This document shows, piece by piece, positions 7,996-34,461 of a DNA stretch of 34,573 nt (its first letter is position 1; each line of letters starts with the position of its first letter). Under the pieces are notes generated by a model. The model did no database searches. It saw nothing but the letters and a program-made list of their open reading frames with translations, and had not been told where the DNA came from. Source of the stretch: an uncultured Candidatus Saccharibacteria bacterium. GTDB lineage: Bacteria; Patescibacteriota; Minisyncoccia; Phycocordibacterales; UBA5272. The stretch is from the NCBI GenBank assembly GCA_964391935.1, contig CAYMOA010000001.1:7860-42432 (forward strand). Direction: 5' to 3'. A program made the position numbers and the translations under genes.

Positions 7996-8676
7996 CTACT
8001 GAACAATAAAATATTGTAAATCTTTGGCTCTGTCTAATTCTTCTATGTTACCTTTCCATTCCCTATAAACAATATCCTCTTCTTTAATTTCTTGTGTATT
8101 TGTATATTTTATTTTATCTCCCAATTCTTCTAGATCACTCACATAAAATTTTTGGGTTTCATTATCTTTGTAAAAAACTTTAATTTTCTGATTTTCTAAA
8201 ATCAAAGAATAAATATTTAGGTGAGAATTGCTTTTATATGTGTCCACACTGTTTTCTTTTATATTAAATTTATAAATCACATCGTAAAAATCTGAGACAC
8301 TTCCCTCTTTAAAGCGAGACTCTAAAAAGTATAGGTGTTCAGGTGTGGTCAAAGTCAACATCTGGGCGCAATGCTCTGGGTCCCAAAAAACATTTTCGGA
8401 AACTTTTTCAAATTTGTTTTTTTCAGAAAAATTTATTTCTTCTAGTTTTTGATTAGTTGCAATATACCAAAATCTTCCAATCTCTTTTTCTTCTTTGTCT
8501 TTTTTTTCTTCTTTAAATCTATACAAATATGCTTTCCCATCTTTTGACAAAACCTCACCTTTTTCTTTTGTAAAACTTTGTCTAGTATCACCACTCATCA
8601 AGTCAGTCTTAAAATAAAAACTCAATCCTATTAAAATGAAAACACAAAATATTACAAACATTCTTTTATTGTTCAT
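7996..8676 (-). CDS. hypothetical membrane-anchored protein
   Basis: The preferred start is the ATG at 8676 (MNNKRMFVIFCVFILIGLSFYF), because TGTTATAAT (-10 at 8689-8684) lies 7 nt upstream and the track start at 8721 sits inside a terminator stem. No known domain. Confidence 0.5.
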   Translation of the reverse strand: MNNKRMFVIFCVFILIGLSFYFKTDLMSGDTRQSFTKEKGEVLSKDGKAYLYRFKEEKKDKEEKEIGRFWYIATNQKLEEINFSEKNKFEKVSENVFWDPEHCAQMLTLTTPEHLYFLESRFKEGSVSDFYDVIYKFNIKENSVDTYKSNSHLNIYSLILENQKIKVFYKDNETQKFYVSDLEELGDKIKYTNTQEIKEEDIVYREWKGNIEELDRAKDLQYFIVQ

Positions 8677-8695
8677 TCCGGTAATTATAACACTC

Positions 8696-8864
8696 AAACA
8701 AAGAAATAGACCGAGATGCAACGTGCATCTCGGTCCTGAGATTGCAGGTGTCCAGCCTTAACTCTGCTGGACAAGACCTCCTGAGAGGAGGCGAAGTGGT
8801 AGCCCTTGCTCACTCCACTTTAGGTTGACGGTCGAGTCCTGTGTCGGACACCCGTATGGCCTTG
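8696..8864 (-). ncRNA. GC-rich structured RNA candidate (unknown class), sRNA or cis-regulatory leader
   Basis: Minus-strand promoter TTGCTT (8898-8893), 16-nt spacer, TAGAAT (8876-8871). P1 is GGUGUCC/GGACACC (8852-8846 with 8753-8747). Inner helices are GGAC/GUCC, AAGUGG/CCACUU and CCUCC/GGAGG. The 12-bp terminator hairpin (8735-8709) is followed by UAUUUCUUUGUUU. My hand count gives 61 G+C in the 106-nt core, against much lower GC in the flanks. Confidence 0.5.
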
Positions 8865-10710: not shown

Positions 10711-10736
10711 CCTCCTTGTAAAGGAGGCTGGGAGGA
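10711..10736 (+). repeat. hairpin-plus-G-tail element, copy B (divergent)
   Basis: cctcctt-gta-aaggagg followed by the tail ctgggagga. It sits in the rpsB-tsf spacer, immediately after the rpsB stop. Confidence 0.45.
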
Positions 10737-10742
10737 TTTGTC

Positions 10743-11449: not shown

Positions 11450-11749
11450 TTAATTATTATCCCAAGTATCAGAAGGCTCTGTAATTTTTGTTGAACTGGT
11501 TAAAAATAAACTGTCAGGATAATTATCATTTGTGAATCTGGATGTATCTATATTTTCTTGGTATCCACCTTCTTTTGCTGCCTCCCGTTCAATCTTTGCA
11601 GCGATAATCATTTCTTGCTCTCTAAGGTATTGTTCATCTTCTGGTAATAGTCCATTGTATCCTTGAGCGCACCTAGCCAAACGACGTATTTGAGCTTTGA
11701 AATTTATTTCGTCTTCATCACCATCATAATCACCATATTTTCTAGCCAT
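11450..11749 (-). CDS. hypothetical acidic protein
   Basis: 99-aa ORF behind a roughly 140-nt leader. No recognisable motif. Confidence 0.45.
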   Translation of the reverse strand: MARKYGDYDGDEDEINFKAQIRRLARCAQGYNGLLPEDEQYLREQEMIIAAKIEREAAKEGGYQENIDTSRFTNDNYPDSLFLTSSTKITEPSDTWDNN

Positions 11750-11897
11750 AAAAATACTTGTTATTTTTTTTTAATATTCAAAAAGTTTTTACTACAACAC
11801 CTGAATATTTCCTACAAAAGTTTTACTCTTGTCTGTCACGAAAATTTCGGCTCGGGTGAGCGTCCCCGATGCTGTAATTGCTTTTGAACTGGTCAGT

Positions 11898-11926
11898 ATT
11901 CTAACACAGAAGTAATTTTTTTTCAA
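11898..11926 (-). promoter_or_regulatory. sigma70-type promoter for the 99-aa gene
   Basis: On the minus strand: TTGAAA (11926-11921), 17-nt spacer, TGT-TAGAAT (-10 at 11903-11898). It abuts hairpin element copy C. Confidence 0.45.
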
Positions 11927-11932
11927 GAACAG

Positions 11933-11965
11933 AAAACACCCCTACCCCTCTTTCGAAAAGAGGGG
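11933..11965 (-). repeat. hairpin-plus-G-tail element, copy C
   Basis: aaaacacccctacccctctttcgaaaagagggg. Its reverse complement, cccctcttttcgaaagaggggtaggggtgtttt, is nearly identical to copy D. C and D therefore form inverted terminal repeats. Confidence 0.7.
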
Positions 11966-12211
11966 TTTTCGAGTTCTAACATATTTTTCTAGTTCTAATT
12001 TAACTTGTAAAACATTGCTCTCAACAGTTTCATTTGTAAATCTTAATGTTTGGATACCATATTTGATAAAAAATAAGTTATCTCTTTCACATCTTTTTCT
12101 TTTTGTTTATTGTGTATTTCTCCATCTATTTCAATTATCAATTTTAATTTGCTGCAGTAAACGTTTGGTTGTTCCTTAAATCTCTCGCTCTTGCTACCAA
12201 ATTTGAGTCAT
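11942..12211 (-). pseudogene. decayed DUF559 / Vsr-like endonuclease-domain gene
   Basis: Minus-strand translation in three different frames gives MTQIW*, FKEQPNVYCSKLKLIIEIDGEIHNKQKEKDVKEITYFLS and GIQTLRFTNETVESNVLQVKLELEKYVRTRKPLFSKEG*. These match DUF559 blocks (LW..LR, FRRQ, DFYC..LKL.IE.DG..H, G..VLRF.N.EV). An in-frame stop, frameshifts and a deletion of the IG.YI.DF block are present. Confidence 0.6.
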
Positions 12212-12239
12212 ATCTAATAAAAATAGTTTCTTGAGATGT

Positions 12240-12274
12240 CCCCCTCTTTTTGAAAGAGGGGTTAGGGGTGTTTT
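12240..12274 (+). repeat. hairpin-plus-G-tail element, copy D
   Basis: ccccctctttttgaaagaggggttaggggtgtttt. A partial tail duplicate (ggtgttttca) follows at 12289-12300. Confidence 0.7.
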
Positions 12275-12372
12275 CAGTGCCGGGAGATTTGGTGTTTTCA
12301 ATATCTGTCATAATCTAATGCTTTTTTCTGTCTTTTGTGTTATTATATCAAACATAAAAATTTAAATAATAA

Positions 12373-12924
12373 ATGCATCCAAAAAATCATAGAACTATAA
12401 TGAACGAAAATATCCGCGCACACGAACTTCGTGTCCTCGGAGAAAACAATGAAAACCTAGGCGTGATGGACAGAAATGCTGCCCTGAAAATAGCCAAAGA
12501 AAAAGGAGTGGACCTCATTTTAACAGCAGAAAACGCAGTGCCACCAGTGGCAAAGATTATCGACTACGGTAAATTCGCCTATTTAGAAAATAAAAAAGAT
12601 AATCAAAAAAGAAATAATGACAATACTACGGAGACCAAAGTATTGCGTTTAACTGTGGGTATCGGTGAGGGAGATCTAACAAACAAAGCTAAACAAGCGA
12701 GTGAGTGGTTACATGAAGGTCACCGAGTAAAAATAGAATTGAAATTAAAAGGCCGCGCTAATGCTATCGAACATGATTTCTTAAAAGAAAGATTGCAGAG
12801 AATTTTGATATTGCTTACTGAGAATTATAAAACTGCAGAGCCGATCAAAAAAATCCCCAATGGTATGACAATGGTTATCGAAAAAGCTAAAGGCAAAATG
12901 GGCGAAGCCGCAGAGAATTTGTAA
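12373..12924 (+). CDS. infC: translation initiation factor IF-3
   Basis: INENIRAHELRVLGENNENLGVM...AKEKGVDLILTAENAVPPVAKIIDYGKFAY is the IF-3 N-domain/linker pattern, and the C-domain is present. The exact start is uncertain: ATG at 12373 or a downstream codon. Confidence 0.9.
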   Translation: MHPKNHRTIMNENIRAHELRVLGENNENLGVMDRNAALKIAKEKGVDLILTAENAVPPVAKIIDYGKFAYLENKKDNQKRNNDNTTETKVLRLTVGIGEGDLTNKAKQASEWLHEGHRVKIELKLKGRANAIEHDFLKERLQRILILLTENYKTAEPIKKIPNGMTMVIEKAKGKMGEAAENL

Positions 12925-16861: not shown

Positions 16862-16893
16862 AAAAAAAGAAAGGCCGGCGCGAAGCGCCGGCC
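16862..16893 (-). terminator. rho-independent terminator
   Basis: The GC-rich hairpin ggccggcgc-gaa-gcgccggcc (16873-16893) is followed on the minus strand by TTTCTTTTTTT. It lies downstream of 16932..17351. Confidence 0.75.
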
Positions 16894-17683: not shown

Positions 17684-17720
17684 CCCCCTCTTTTTTAAAG
17701 AGGGAGCTGGGGGTGTTTTT
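17684..17720 (+). repeat. hairpin-plus-G-tail element, copy E
   Basis: ccccctcttttttaaagagggagctgggggtgttttt, located 17 nt after the secG stop. It probably doubles as a terminator. Confidence 0.65.
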
Positions 17721-30448: not shown

Positions 30449-31288
30449 TTATCTTGCACTTGCTTTCAACACATTCTCGAATAGGCAGGCGACTACGAGA
30501 GGGCCCATGCAACCGGGAACTGGTGTGTAGTATGATGCAAGATCGAAACACTCTGGGTCAAAGTCACCACAAGCTACCTCTTTTCCTGACTCATCTTTTA
30601 CAAAAGAGCAGCCATAGTCTATCAATACACTTCCCTCTTTTATGAGTTCTTTTTTTATGAAAAACGGTTTGCCAACAGCAGAGATCACTACGTCGCAATC
30701 TTTTATTTTTTCTTCTTCCCCTTTTTTTATTATCTCGATTTCCCAATTATTTTTCTGTCTATTTTTTTCTAAATAATGTTTTATTGGTAGCCCTACCACC
30801 TGACCAAGTCCAACTATCCCGAATTTCGCACTACTTCCTCCCCTATTTATAGGGGAGGTTAGGTGGGGTTGAACAACTTCTAGAATTTTTTCCAAAGCCA
30901 AAACAATTGGGGCTTCAAAATTTCCATCATTTAAATTATCTACATCTTTTTCTTTTACTATTAAAGTCAGGATTTCTTCTGTGTTCTCTTTTAATTTTTC
31001 TGGAAGAGGCAACTGTACAATTACAGCATCGTTTTCTTTTTGTAAATTTAATAATTCTTCTTTTATTTTTTCTAAACTCGTTTGTTCAGACAAAATTAAA
31101 ATATTTACAACAAAGCCATAATTTTCCCCAAATTTCTTTTTTACTTTTATAAAAGATAGAGATGCAGGATCATTACCCACACATAAAATACCTAGAGAAG
31201 GTTTTTTGTTTTCTCCAAATTTTTCTAAAATTTCTTTCTTTAAAAATTCTCCTATTTCTCTATTTATCTTTTTTCCATCAATCAACAT
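30449..31288 (-). CDS. folD: bifunctional methylenetetrahydrofolate dehydrogenase/cyclohydrolase FolD, carrying an in-frame repeat insertion
   Basis: MLIDGKKI..., ILCVGNDPASLSFIKVKKK, VIVQLPLP, KDVDNL and TPVPGCMGPLVVACL are the FolD pattern. The segment QPHLTSPINRGGSS is encoded by hairpin element copy H. Confidence 0.88.
   Translation of the reverse strand: MLIDGKKINREIGEFLKKEILEKFGENKKPSLGILCVGNDPASLSFIKVKKKFGENYGFVVNILILSEQTSLEKIKEELLNLQKENDAVIVQLPLPEKLKENTEEILTLIVKEKDVDNLNDGNFEAPIVLALEKILEVVQPHLTSPINRGGSSAKFGIVGLGQVVGLPIKHYLEKNRQKNNWEIEIIKKGEEEKIKDCDVVISAVGKPFFIKKELIKEGSVLIDYGCSFVKDESGKEVACGDFDPECFDLASYYTPVPGCMGPLVVACLFENVLKASAR
30837..30868 (+). repeat. hairpin-plus-G-tail element, copy H (inside the folD CDS)
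   Basis: cctcccctat-tt-ataggggagg (10-bp arms) plus the tail ttaggtgggg. Read on the coding (minus) strand it gives PHLTSPINRGG. Confidence 0.7.
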
Positions 31289-32886: not shown

Positions 32887-33903
32887 TTAGTATATCATTT
32901 TTCTTAAAATGTACAGAAAATATCTTATTCTTTTTATTGGGATATCCACAAAGTCACCGTGGAATTTTGCAAATCCACCAAACCTTTTTTTAAAATTGGT
33001 CACCCCTTGTAAACTTTGTTTTCCATAACCATTTTCAAAAATACCGCCAAAATTATATATTTCACAACCCATTTTTTTAGAATGTTTTGTTGCTTCCCAT
33101 TGCATCAGATGGTTAAACCCAAGTTCTCTTTTTTCAGAAACACTTCCCGCAAAAACTAAGTTGGCAACTTTATCAGCAATTACAATCAAAGCTACAGACA
33201 TATATTTGTCCTCCAACTTTGTAAAAACTAAAAACTTTTTTATATCCTCTGAAGTTTGATTGTTTGCAAATATTTGTTTGTAATAATTTTCTTCATAAAG
33301 TGAAAAACCATCTCGCTCACTTGTCTCTTTTAAAAGATTCCAAAAATCTGAAAAATGACTTTCTAAATTCTCTTCTATAATTTCTATTTTAATATTTTCA
33401 CGTTCTGCTCGGCGTATAGAATATTTATTATCTTTATGTATTCTATTTAATAAATTTTCTTCTGTATCATTTAAGTTTAACCACCACTCTACTCGTGGTT
33501 GAAAAATCCCCTCTCTCGCAAAACTTTTTTTAGGAGGGTATATTTTTGTTTGAAGTGATGCAGAAAAAATATGGAACGTAGAGGATAAGGCACTATGTTC
33601 ATCTGCCTCGGAGTTACTTATTTTTTCTGCATCATATTTTTCTAATCTAACAAAAACACAATTTTCTTTTTTTGCGAGGTCTTTTAAATAATTTAAAATT
33701 TCTGTTTCTACCCCCCTTAATCCCCCCTTAGTAAGGGGGGAAACTAGAGCAGGCCCATAAGGTACATACAAAACTTTTCCAATTTTAAGATTTATAATTA
33801 AGCTAGCACAAACAGAAGAACCAAACTCTTTGTAAAAAGTTTTTTCTCCGACCGCTTCGTGCCAACTTAGGTATTCTCTTGTCTGGGTAAAAGGAATATT
33901 CAT
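32887..33903 (-). CDS. FemAB-family peptidoglycan peptide-bridge aminoacyltransferase, carrying an in-frame repeat insertion
   Basis: The pattern is FTQTREYLSWHEAVG..., YVPYGP..., FAGSVSEKRELGFNHLMQWEATKHSKKMGCEIYNFGGI. The start is moved to the ATG at 33903, 8 nt after TGATATAAT. The segment SPLTKGGLRGV is encoded by hairpin element copy I. Confidence 0.75.
   Translation of the reverse strand: MNIPFTQTREYLSWHEAVGEKTFYKEFGSSVCASLIINLKIGKVLYVPYGPALVSPLTKGGLRGVETEILNYLKDLAKKENCVFVRLEKYDAEKISNSEADEHSALSSTFHIFSASLQTKIYPPKKSFAREGIFQPRVEWWLNLNDTEENLLNRIHKDNKYSIRRAERENIKIEIIEENLESHFSDFWNLLKETSERDGFSLYEENYYKQIFANNQTSEDIKKFLVFTKLEDKYMSVALIVIADKVANLVFAGSVSEKRELGFNHLMQWEATKHSKKMGCEIYNFGGIFENGYGKQSLQGVTNFKKRFGGFAKFHGDFVDIPIKRIRYFLYILRKMIY
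33710..33740 (-). repeat. hairpin-plus-G-tail element, copy I (inside the FemAB CDS)
   Basis: On the plus strand: accccccttaa + tcccccctta-g-taagggggg. On the coding (minus) strand the order is hairpin then tail, which translates as SPLTKGGLRGV. Confidence 0.7.
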
Positions 33904-33958
33904 TTGCAAACATTATATCAGATTAAAAACTTTTAAACTGTAAAATACCACTAAAATC

Positions 33959-34354
33959 CTAAAACGGATCCCAATTTGGGTCATTCTTATTTTTCATAAT
34001 ACGAAGCCGACTTTGTAATTTATCAACTAATTCTTGACCGAAATCTATATAAAATACATTATCATATGAATCATATTTTAATGTTGCTCCATTTCTAATA
34101 AAAAAATTAAGGCAACGATTAACTCTTTCCTCTGATGATTCACTTTTCTCTTTTATTATACCATTTGTACCATGAATGACATTATGGAACATTTTATTTA
34201 ATTGTAAATGACAACTTACAAATCGATAATCAGGTTCTCCACGTTCCCTTAAATTAGCAAGCGATGAAATTAACCCTCCGTACTCTTCAAAGATAGCATC
34301 GGCCTCTTTTTCAAAATCAGAATTAGGTTGAGATACTTTTGTTTCTATAGTCAT
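33959..34354 (-). CDS. hypothetical protein
   Basis: 131-aa ORF with no recognisable motif. Its upstream region carries the (TA)10 tract. Confidence 0.45.
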   Translation of the reverse strand: MTIETKVSQPNSDFEKEADAIFEEYGGLISSLANLRERGEPDYRFVSCHLQLNKMFHNVIHGTNGIIKEKSESSEERVNRCLNFFIRNGATLKYDSYDNVFYIDFGQELVDKLQSRLRIMKNKNDPNWDPF

Positions 34355-34396
34355 AAATTTTTATTTTTTAAATATTATCTAGTAATATTTTTATAG

Positions 34397-34416
34397 TATA
34401 TATATATATATATATA
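34397..34416. repeat. (TA)10 dinucleotide microsatellite
   Basis: An uninterrupted tatatatatatatatatata run lies 43-62 nt upstream of the ATG at 34354, immediately downstream (minus strand) of a TTGACT hexamer (34426-34421). Confidence 0.85.
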
Positions 34417-34430
34417 TTAAAGTCAATGAT

Positions 34431-34461
34431 AAAAAAATGCTTATTTTGTAAGCATTTTTTT
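34431..34461 (-). terminator. bidirectional-looking rho-independent terminator
   Basis: An A7 run precedes the stem atgctta (34437-34443), loop ttttg and stem taagcat (34449-34455), followed by T6. It lies downstream of the partial minus-strand CDS. Confidence 0.7.

Follow-up and report, generated by a model that had tools for sequence, protein, structure and literature searches.

Selfish repeats that sit in frame within essential genes are, to our knowledge, textbook material for Rickettsia and poorly documented elsewhere. The Rickettsia palindromic elements (RPEs; Ogata et al. 2000) occur in frame in essential genes, as cited in PMC3184786 and PMC3733652. They are about 105-146 bp long, restricted to Rickettsia and tagged with CGTC (PMC3733652). 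Intragenic copies have also been catalogued for repetitive extragenic palindromes, the REP sequences (PMC3733652), and BRE, RUP and Correia elements, which fuse with open reading frames (ORFs), have been reviewed (PMC3184786). Here we describe a 33-nt unit, a C-rich box joined to a perfect hairpin, within the folD gene of an uncultured Candidatus Saccharibacteria bacterium. The gene is located in a stretch of 34,573 nucleotides (the window). The unit is a real in-frame selfish repeat, which supports the interpretation given in the original prediction for this DNA. The observations as a whole are very probably explained by the insertion of a polar, dispersed box+hairpin repeat into folD, where it is tolerated in a loop; mobilization of the repeat in trans by a DUF559 protein would be a further part of this explanation.

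Both the box+hairpin units and the RPEs are selfish palindromes that lie in frame within essential genes and also in intergenic DNA, and both are translated and tolerated as extra surface segments. In comparison with RPEs, the units are only 29-36 nt long, consist of a single hairpin and a C-rich box, occur in many phyla and are linked to DUF559 genes. Judged by length and tag, the two features compared, the folD unit is not an RPE (33 nt versus about 100-150 bp). Taken by itself, the folD case adds one more example to a known phenomenon, from a new lineage and with a unit that is unusually small.

The folD ORF encodes 279 residues on the minus strand and contains no stop codon or frameshift (Table 1). 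Its product matches both domains of FolD in Pfam (PF00763 at 7.6e-20 and PF02882 at 1.1e-23) and solved FolD structures at 1e-27 to 1e-28. On the plus strand, positions 30837-30858 read CCTCCCCTAT-TT-ATAGGGGAGG, a palindrome of 10+10 bp with no mismatches, and folD is the sole long ORF at that place. The palindrome pattern, allowing up to three mismatches, has one match in the window and none in 100 dinucleotide-preserving shuffles. The presence of a palindrome with perfect 10-bp arms inside the FolD coding sequence (CDS) is thus borne out by the sequence, the pattern scan and the ORF. The earlier assigned end of the element at 30868 is one base short, as the unit extends to 30869 when the 11-nt box ACCCCACCTAA is included.

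On the coding strand the unit is ACCCCACCTAA-CCTCCCCTAT-AA-ATAGGGGAGG. Its start is at nucleotide 420 of the CDS, and its translation is (Q)PHLTSPINRGG. The codons across it (GTT GTT CAA CCC CAC CTA ACC TCC CCT ATA AAT AGG GGA GGA AGT AGT) give VVQPHLTSPINRGGSS, and the peptide spanning the insert in the window FolD is ..VVQPHLTSPINR... The translation predicted from the letters, ..LEKILEVV-QPHLTSPINRGGSS-AKFGIVGLGQVVGLP.., matches exactly. Only one of the three forward frames of the unit is free of stop codons, and it is the frame in use; the reading frame is kept across the insert, as had been proposed. For the 56-nt context of the palindrome, the predicted folding energy of the RNA is -18.4 kcal/mol (z -3.5) and that of the DNA is -9.8 kcal/mol (z -3.8). 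A Rho-independent terminator was considered for this hairpin and rejected. The T run of an intrinsic terminator is absent on either strand, the letters after the hairpin being AAGTAGTGCG on the coding strand and TTAGGTGGGG on the opposite one, and the hairpin lies in the middle of an intact ORF.

A protein search finds about 40 FolD orthologs, all metagenomic, with 47-79% identity to the window protein, and 30 of them were used in an alignment. The window FolD (P0001) retains all of the invariant and nearly invariant columns of this alignment. Pairwise alignment to FolD entries of the Protein Data Bank with HMMER smears the indel, and the ortholog alignment is needed to reveal the insertion. 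The two closest orthologs, P0002 (79% identity) and P0003 (76% identity), do not have the 11 residues, and they show the same synteny as the window: a Mur ligase, a 78-residue ORF, folD, and then a convergent recG. The linker between the LEK(I/V)LE helix and the KFGI(I/V)GLGQVVG strand has 6 residues in these two proteins and 17 in the window. Removal of the 33 nt ACCCCACCTAACCTCCCCTATAAATAGGGGAGG in silico leaves an open frame of 268 codons with a 6-residue linker, VVQSSA. Because the syntenic orthologs have 6 residues against 17 in the window, and because excision restores that length, there is a net insertion of 11 residues. Three further residues of the length difference between the window protein and the orthologs are N-terminal. 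By this comparison of sequences, the 33 nt are a clean insertion into folD.

The number of extra residues had been put at 12-14, from a remembered comparison with the linkers of E. coli and B. subtilis FolD. This comparison was roughly right, and the excess is corrected to 11. An ortholog that has the same peptide from DNA with no palindrome would have argued for an ordinary segment of the protein; in P0007, the sole ortholog in which this peptide is found, the palindromic DNA is present as well. In P0002 and P0003, the short stretches NPHKN and TSSRG resemble the peptide of the element and are suggestive of remnants left by its deletion, though they are too short to test.

The structure of the window FolD was predicted with AlphaFold2 using the ortholog alignment, with a mean predicted local distance difference test score (pLDDT) of 94.4 and a predicted template modelling score of 0.91. 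The model overlays on solved FolD and MTHFD structures with template modelling scores of 0.78-0.87, placing the protein in the FolD fold. The sole weak block of the model, residues 141-150 with a mean pLDDT of 70, corresponds to the insert. It is located between the helix of residues 127-143 and the strand of residues 155-159, the first strand of the NADP domain, in agreement with the surface loop that had been presumed for it. This site is at the N-terminal end of strand β1, at the opposite end and face from the Gly-rich cofactor loop, where extra length is harmless. On the predicted structure, the enzyme looks functional and the insert looks like a loop. We infer that the insert has no function for FolD.

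At least five other orthologs (P0007, P0005, P0018, P0006 and P0029) have an insert in the same loop that is a family copy or a palindrome. P0007 is 65% identical to the window FolD and is not its sister in a neighbour-joining tree. It has a 33-nt unit at the identical site and in the identical frame, with one substitution (32 of the 33 nt shared), which is read as PHLASPINRGG; two independent assemblies (L001 and L002) contain it. Outside the element, identity between the window and P0007 folD genes is 77% at first, 80% at second and 47% at third codon positions. Over the 12-codon block of the element, all 12 third positions are identical (P ~1e-4). A second family copy, CCTCACCTAGCC-TCTCCTT-GC-AAGGAGA, is found near the C-terminal third of P0007 folD (L001 560-1453) and is read as SPSLSLQRRR, and a third insert at another position is a 22-nt perfect palindrome, CCTTTCTCCCCGGGGAGAAAGG, read as LSPRGER. 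The gene also has an unexplained insert of 7 residues, in the KIKSNSKEIGS region.

In P0005, the loop contains another variant in another frame, ACCTCTCCCAA-CCTCTCCTT-GC-AAGGAGAGG, which is read as YLSQPLLAKERG. The loop of P0018 has a longer C/G-rich insert, that of P0006 a bare palindrome, CCCCCTTTC-G-GAAAGGGGG, and that of P0029 a decayed palindrome. This linker varies in length across the clade, between about 4 and about 31 residues. Either the loop is preferred as a target or, as is simpler, insertions at this site survive, and the repeat units appear to decay into ordinary loop sequence over time.

Such variability in length would also be expected if the segment were an ordinary palindromic loop extension with no mobile element involved. 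The window is a metagenomic assembly as well, and its exact FolD protein has no record in the contig index, as an assembly artefact might. Nonetheless, an extension, an artefact or a pseudogene is a highly improbable account of the insert. The 10-bp palindrome with its box is not expected by chance, given its absence from the shuffles, and the unit is identical to many copies elsewhere. The same 33-nt unit is present in both assemblies of P0007, the ORF is intact with its conserved residues kept, and the fold is confidently predicted.

A different reading of the window and P0007 genes is that the hairpin has been co-opted in folD, for ribosome pausing before the NADP domain, for stabilizing or processing the mRNA, or for binding of a host factor. 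The 32 of 33 shared nucleotides, the identity of all third positions in the block against 47% elsewhere, and the stability of the predicted RNA hairpin would all fit such a role. We consider it unlikely, as the element is missing from P0002 and P0003, the sister orthologs, and from most of the clade, other lineages have different palindromes, in different frames, at the same loop, and the family is also present in unrelated genes and in intergenic DNA. Moreover, there are no matches to Rfam families, and the conservation of the nucleotides is equally explained by a constraint on the propagation of the element itself. Searches with Rfam return only tRNAs for the whole window at the gathering score, no credible match over positions 30780-30930 at E<=10, and no match at the copies in nine other element loci, where an unrelated antisense RNA and noise were found elsewhere.

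The window was scanned for hairpins with pyrimidine 5' arms. By our definition, members of the family have a C-rich box of about 10-12 nt, with TAA, TAG or CAG at its end, and immediately after it a hairpin whose 5' arm is of pyrimidines (C-rich) and 7-10 nt long and whose loop spans 2-12 nt; they also occur as multiple copies with unrelated flanks. Six box+hairpin units are found in the window (Table 1), so that the folD element, with which the definition agrees exactly, is one copy of a repeat family, as its earlier label of copy H had implied. A second copy is located in frame in a FemAB-like gene, where it is translated on the minus strand as SPLTKGGLRGV and has C6 arms. The window protein reads YGP-ALV-SPLTKGGLRGV-ETEIL at this position and its relative in L005 reads YGP-TQITK-EII, indicating an insert of 11 codons (33 nt). 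The linker lengths agree after excision, and the copy uses the sole open frame for its orientation. The window thus has two clean, in-frame 33-nt insertions less than 3 kb apart. Comparison of filled and empty sites reveals no visible target-site duplication for either the folD or the FemAB-like site.

Table 1. Positions of folD, of the box+hairpin units and of the associated genes in the window
Feature	Position	Strand	Basis or remark
folD CDS, intact, bearing the insertion	30449-31288	minus	ORF call, Pfam, PDB matches, AlphaFold2 model
Box+hairpin repeat unit, 33 nt	30837-30869	minus	Excision restores ortholog linker length; stop-free frame
Perfect palindrome (arms 30837-30846 and 30849-30858, 2-nt spacer)	30837-30858	no strand	Pattern scan, folding
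C-rich box ACCCCACCTAA, 5' of the hairpin, gives polarity	30859-30869	minus	Conserved in ~125 foreign copies
Second in-frame copy, TACCCCCCTTAA-TCCCCCCTT-AGT-AAGGGGGGA	33709-33741	plus	Comparison with relative L005
FemAB-like gene hosting the second insertion	32887-33909	minus	Likely start ATG at 33903
Decayed DUF559 (YcjD-like) gene, two frames, internal deletion	11945-12207	minus	hmmsearch with own DUF559 profile
Family copy just upstream of the DUF559 remnant, ACACCCCTAA-CCCCTCTTT-CAA-AAAGAGGGG	12241-12271	minus	Hairpin scan
Family copy just downstream of the DUF559 remnant, inverted orientation	11936-11965	plus	Hairpin scan
Intergenic solo copy, ATCCTCCCAG-CCTCCTT-TAC-AAGGAGG	10711-10737	minus	Hairpin scan
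Intergenic solo copy, ACACCCCCAGCT-CCCTCTTT-AAA-AAAGAGGG	17686-17716	minus	Hairpin scan

The family is spread over a large number of genomes. A scan of species-representative genomes with the exact pattern CCACCTARCCTCCCCT-N2-10-AGGGGAGG gave at least 119 stretches, from Patescibacteria/Saccharibacteria, Nitrospirota, Gammaproteobacteria (including cultured Rahnella and Ewingella), Bacteroidota, Planctomycetota, Chloroflexota, Bacillota, Elusimicrobiota and others. The aligned copies (about 125) have the form CCACCTA(A/G)CCTCCCCT-loop-AGGGGAGG, bounded by (A/T)ACC on the 5' side and (A/G)A on the 3' side, with sharp boundaries, variable loops and unrelated flanks; their consensus is (A/T)ACC-CCACCTA(A/G)CC...GGGGAGG-(A/G)A. 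Many copies have a second unit nearby in inverted orientation, and hairpin arrays free of genes are common. No insertion-site consensus or target-site duplication is found in the flanks of the clean insertions or of the roughly 125 copies. A phage vector for the spread across phyla is unsupported, as only 5 exact copies are present in 2.9 million viral contigs.

Most of the copies are intergenic, and about 8 of the 125 are located in long ORFs. In-frame copies are found in metagenome-assembled genomes (MAGs) of low GC content, in LeuRS, ATP synthase gamma, a MiaB-like radical-SAM enzyme, MetRS, KsgA/RsmA and PGA_cap. They are read in three combinations of frame and orientation (TPPSLP..RGG, PHLTSP..RGG and SSPK.GE.RWG), so the conserved unit is the DNA and not the peptide. 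The LeuRS with such a copy, at about residue 270, is encoded in a Patescibacteria MAG (L037 840-3863, plus strand). This protein has an unusual architecture, with a NUDIX domain (residues 436-545) embedded beside the editing domain. Composites are seen in Nitrospirota, where two arm subtypes in opposite orientation are 3-45 nt apart (L010 ~2250-2900; L013, L018, L039, L074, L123 and others). One example is ACCTCCCCTAA-CCCCTCC..GGAGGGG ... CCTCCCC..GGGGAGG-TTAGGTGGGGT, with the composites present in duplicate on either side of a DUF559 gene.

In style, the box+hairpin repeat resembles the REP and BoxC elements. REPs and REPINs are also GC-rich hairpins of 20-40 nt with a polarity tag, found as solos and inverted doublets, with an enzyme gene within an inverted pair and with some intragenic copies (PMC3733652, PMC3116915). 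Like REPs, the family consists of short GC-rich palindromes, present as solos or doublets and mostly extragenic. The tag of REPs, however, is not shared, as neither GTAG nor CGTC is present at either boundary of the ~125-copy consensus; a GTAG is found 3' of the folD copy and is not common to the other copies. In addition, the associated gene encodes a DUF559 protein with a Vsr-like PD-(D/E)XK fold instead of an HUH/Y1 transposase, RAYT is essentially absent nearby, and the units are near-identical across phyla whereas REP families are usually species-specific. The elements known as MITEs (miniature inverted-repeat transposable elements; Correia/NEMIS, BRE, RUP and BOX) are likewise non-autonomous and sometimes fused in frame to ORFs (PMC3184786, PMC10969869). 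Their terminal inverted repeats enclose a core, they show target-site duplications, and they are 50-500 bp long (PMC3184786, PMC10969869). The unit does not belong with them, being a single hairpin and box of 33 nt with no duplicated flank at the folD or FemAB-like site.

The genes next to the element copies point to an associated protein family. Among the 126 small ORFs adjoining copies, 9 encode DUF559 proteins (PF04480, with a Vsr-like PD-(D/E)XK fold), and no other nuclease or transposase family reached two. Among the matches listed, a DUF559 gene is present within the fetched stretch in 12 of the 119 loci found through the element. In the cassette layout, an inverted pair of units surrounds the DUF559 gene, with hairpin-TTAGGTGGGGT upstream and ACCCCACC-TAA-hairpin downstream. 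The TAA or TAG of the box is often the stop codon of the gene.

The association was also examined from the side of the protein, in a sample of 80 metagenomic loci with small DUF559 genes. A hairpin with a C-rich arm is located within 260 nt of the gene in 73 of these loci, and on both sides of it in 49. The density of hairpins is about 4.4 per kb near the gene and about 0.1 per kb more than 300 nt away (~44-fold), both values having been halved as a C-arm/G-arm hairpin is found on both strands. The median position of the hairpin is about 25 nt past the stop codon and about 35 nt before the start, and in 8 of 35 cases the stop codon is within the box. The box faces the gene more often than it faces away, both upstream (27 versus 9) and downstream (23 versus 11). 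Where hairpins are present on the two sides, their arms share a 7-mer or longer in 67% of loci, compared to 13% between different loci.

The window itself contains the remains of such a cassette. Two adjacent frames in the intergenic gap 11749-12373 match our own DUF559 profile in hmmsearch, at 4e-9 and 2e-6, and an inverted pair of repeats with CCCCTCTTT arms surrounds this remnant. The contig of the closest relative has an intact DUF559 gene with the same flanks. A REP/RAYT model was rejected. A phmmer search with E. coli RayT covered about 1 Mb translated in six frames (the window and L009-L208) and gave one weak match (E 1e-4), while DUF559 is the recurrent neighbour. The locus of this match, on a Candidatus Magasanikbacteria contig (L021), also has a DUF559 gene and a copy of the repeat. 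No paper was found that links DUF559 or YcjD to any repeat family, and the association is apparently undescribed, new as far as we could find.

These observations suggest how the insertion could have arisen and persisted. A copy of the 33-nt repeat was inserted into folD, and as its length is a multiple of three bases and it lies in its sole stop-free frame, the gene stays open, with the repeat read as 11 extra residues at the loop from the helix to the Rossmann strand. Selection would remove insertions into coding sequence unless they keep the frame, have no stop codons and fall in permissive loops. Such a filter on survival would account for the same loop being hit repeatedly in related FolDs. 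The repeat would be a non-autonomous selfish DNA, copied or moved in trans by a DUF559 nuclease that recognizes the box and the hairpin. This last step is proposed by analogy with REP sequences and the RAYT transposase.

Extended beyond folD, a tentative proposal is that the small DUF559/YcjD-like nucleases with the Vsr fold are the dedicated enzymes of a pan-bacterial box+hairpin family, probably including BoxC. They would form a REPtron-like system based on PD-(D/E)XK rather than HUH enzymes, and the units would be a recurrent source of loop insertions in Patescibacteria. The main rival, which we regard as somewhat doubtful, takes the hairpins as landing pads: DUF559 genes would home into pre-existing box+hairpin repeats, and the repeats would spread otherwise, whether by some other transposase, by switches of template at hairpins as the DNA is replicated, or by gene conversion. 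Insertion sequence elements that target REPs provide a precedent (PMC3184786). The outward boxes around the DUF559 genes in the window and in L005 have the same geometry as the gene-free doublets of many loci, and arrays with no gene are common. On the other hand, the dominant geometry, an inverted pair with inward boxes and matched arms, is that of terminal inverted repeats, and homing into pre-existing repeats does not readily explain the frequent location of the stop codon inside the box. Nor does any other candidate enzyme recur beside the repeats: only DUF559/MTES_1575 exceeded 2 of the 126 neighbouring ORFs, and the ~1 Mb searched has a single weak RAYT-like match.

Several observations weigh against mobilization by DUF559 proteins in trans. 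The DUF559 gene in the window is decayed, its CCCCTCTTT arms differ from the CCTCCCCT arms of the folD copy, and no cognate enzyme for the folD copy is present in the window. The geometry is not uniform, as the window, L005 and about a quarter of the scored cases have outward boxes. The box and arm sequences are near-identical across phyla while the flanking DUF559 proteins are only 30-58% identical. This mismatch is not predicted for a co-evolving pair of enzyme and site, hints at a constraint at the level of the host, and is also in keeping with the landing pads. The near-identity of the window and P0007 units amid saturated third positions needs selection at the level of the element, gene conversion or site-specific re-insertion. 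Finally, neither an intermediate of transposition nor a duplicated target site nor a consensus for insertion sites was found, and hence there is no direct evidence on the mechanism.

The association extends to E. coli, where ycjD of strain K-12 is the archetype of the NCBIfam model for DUF559. The gene ends with ..TCACCCTCTCCC-TGA-AAGAGCGAGGGGG, followed by CCCCTCT-GGGG-AGAGGG-TTAGGGTGAGGGG. In each of the 5,426 complete E. coli genomes, a 61-nt stretch at this end is present as a dispersed repeat, which occupies a median of 18 places per genome and at most 32. The repeat has the same layout of box and hairpin as the window copies, and its arm sequence is different. BoxC was reportedly first described in the envM (fabI) region, which we take to be the ycjD locus. 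We know of no report that links BoxC to YcjD or that places it in frame in essential genes. BoxC is listed at 56 bp with about 32 copies in E. coli (PMC2267715), a copy number that fits the places per genome of the ycjD-side repeat. As a lead, this repeat is probably BoxC.

A further repetition is seen downstream of ycjD in E. coli K-12, on the minus strand of L209 (3040-3420). The last ~20 codons of the gene, ETVLENILQELNRR.., recur there in degenerate form as METVLENIRQGLNRP.., some 60 nt past the gene and ahead of the next box+hairpin unit. This suggests either that the 3' end of the gene is within the repeated unit or that a second cassette has left a remnant.

For the FolD family, these results describe one loop of one essential enzyme, in an uncultured lineage, that has been repeatedly colonized by palindromes of 21-55 nt. 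They offer a concrete mechanism by which loop insertions specific to a lineage arise in reduced genomes, with units present in tRNA synthetases and ATP synthase as well. The DUF559 association suggests a testable function for a very common, uncharacterized nuclease family that includes the E. coli y-gene ycjD. It makes DUF559 a candidate enzyme for an orphan repeat family that apparently includes E. coli BoxC, which could be tested in E. coli. If true, this would be a second REPtron-like system, whose units, at about 30 nt, are short enough for in-frame entry into essential genes, within the streamlined proteomes of Patescibacteria (FolD, FemAB, LeuRS, MetRS and ATP synthase gamma). For annotation, the family accounts for many spurious PLxxKGG or PHLTSP..RGG peptides and for odd indels in conserved proteins.

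The window has two other strong, GC-rich palindromes, outside the box+hairpin family: GGCCGGCGC-GAA-GCGCCGGCC at 16873-16893, which is intergenic, and GACCGAGATGCA-ACG-TGCATCTCGGTC at 8709-8735, which overlaps the start of the ORF at 7996-8721. A run of AT dinucleotides with AT-rich palindromes is located close to the end of the window, at 34385-34440, just past the ORF at 33959-34354.

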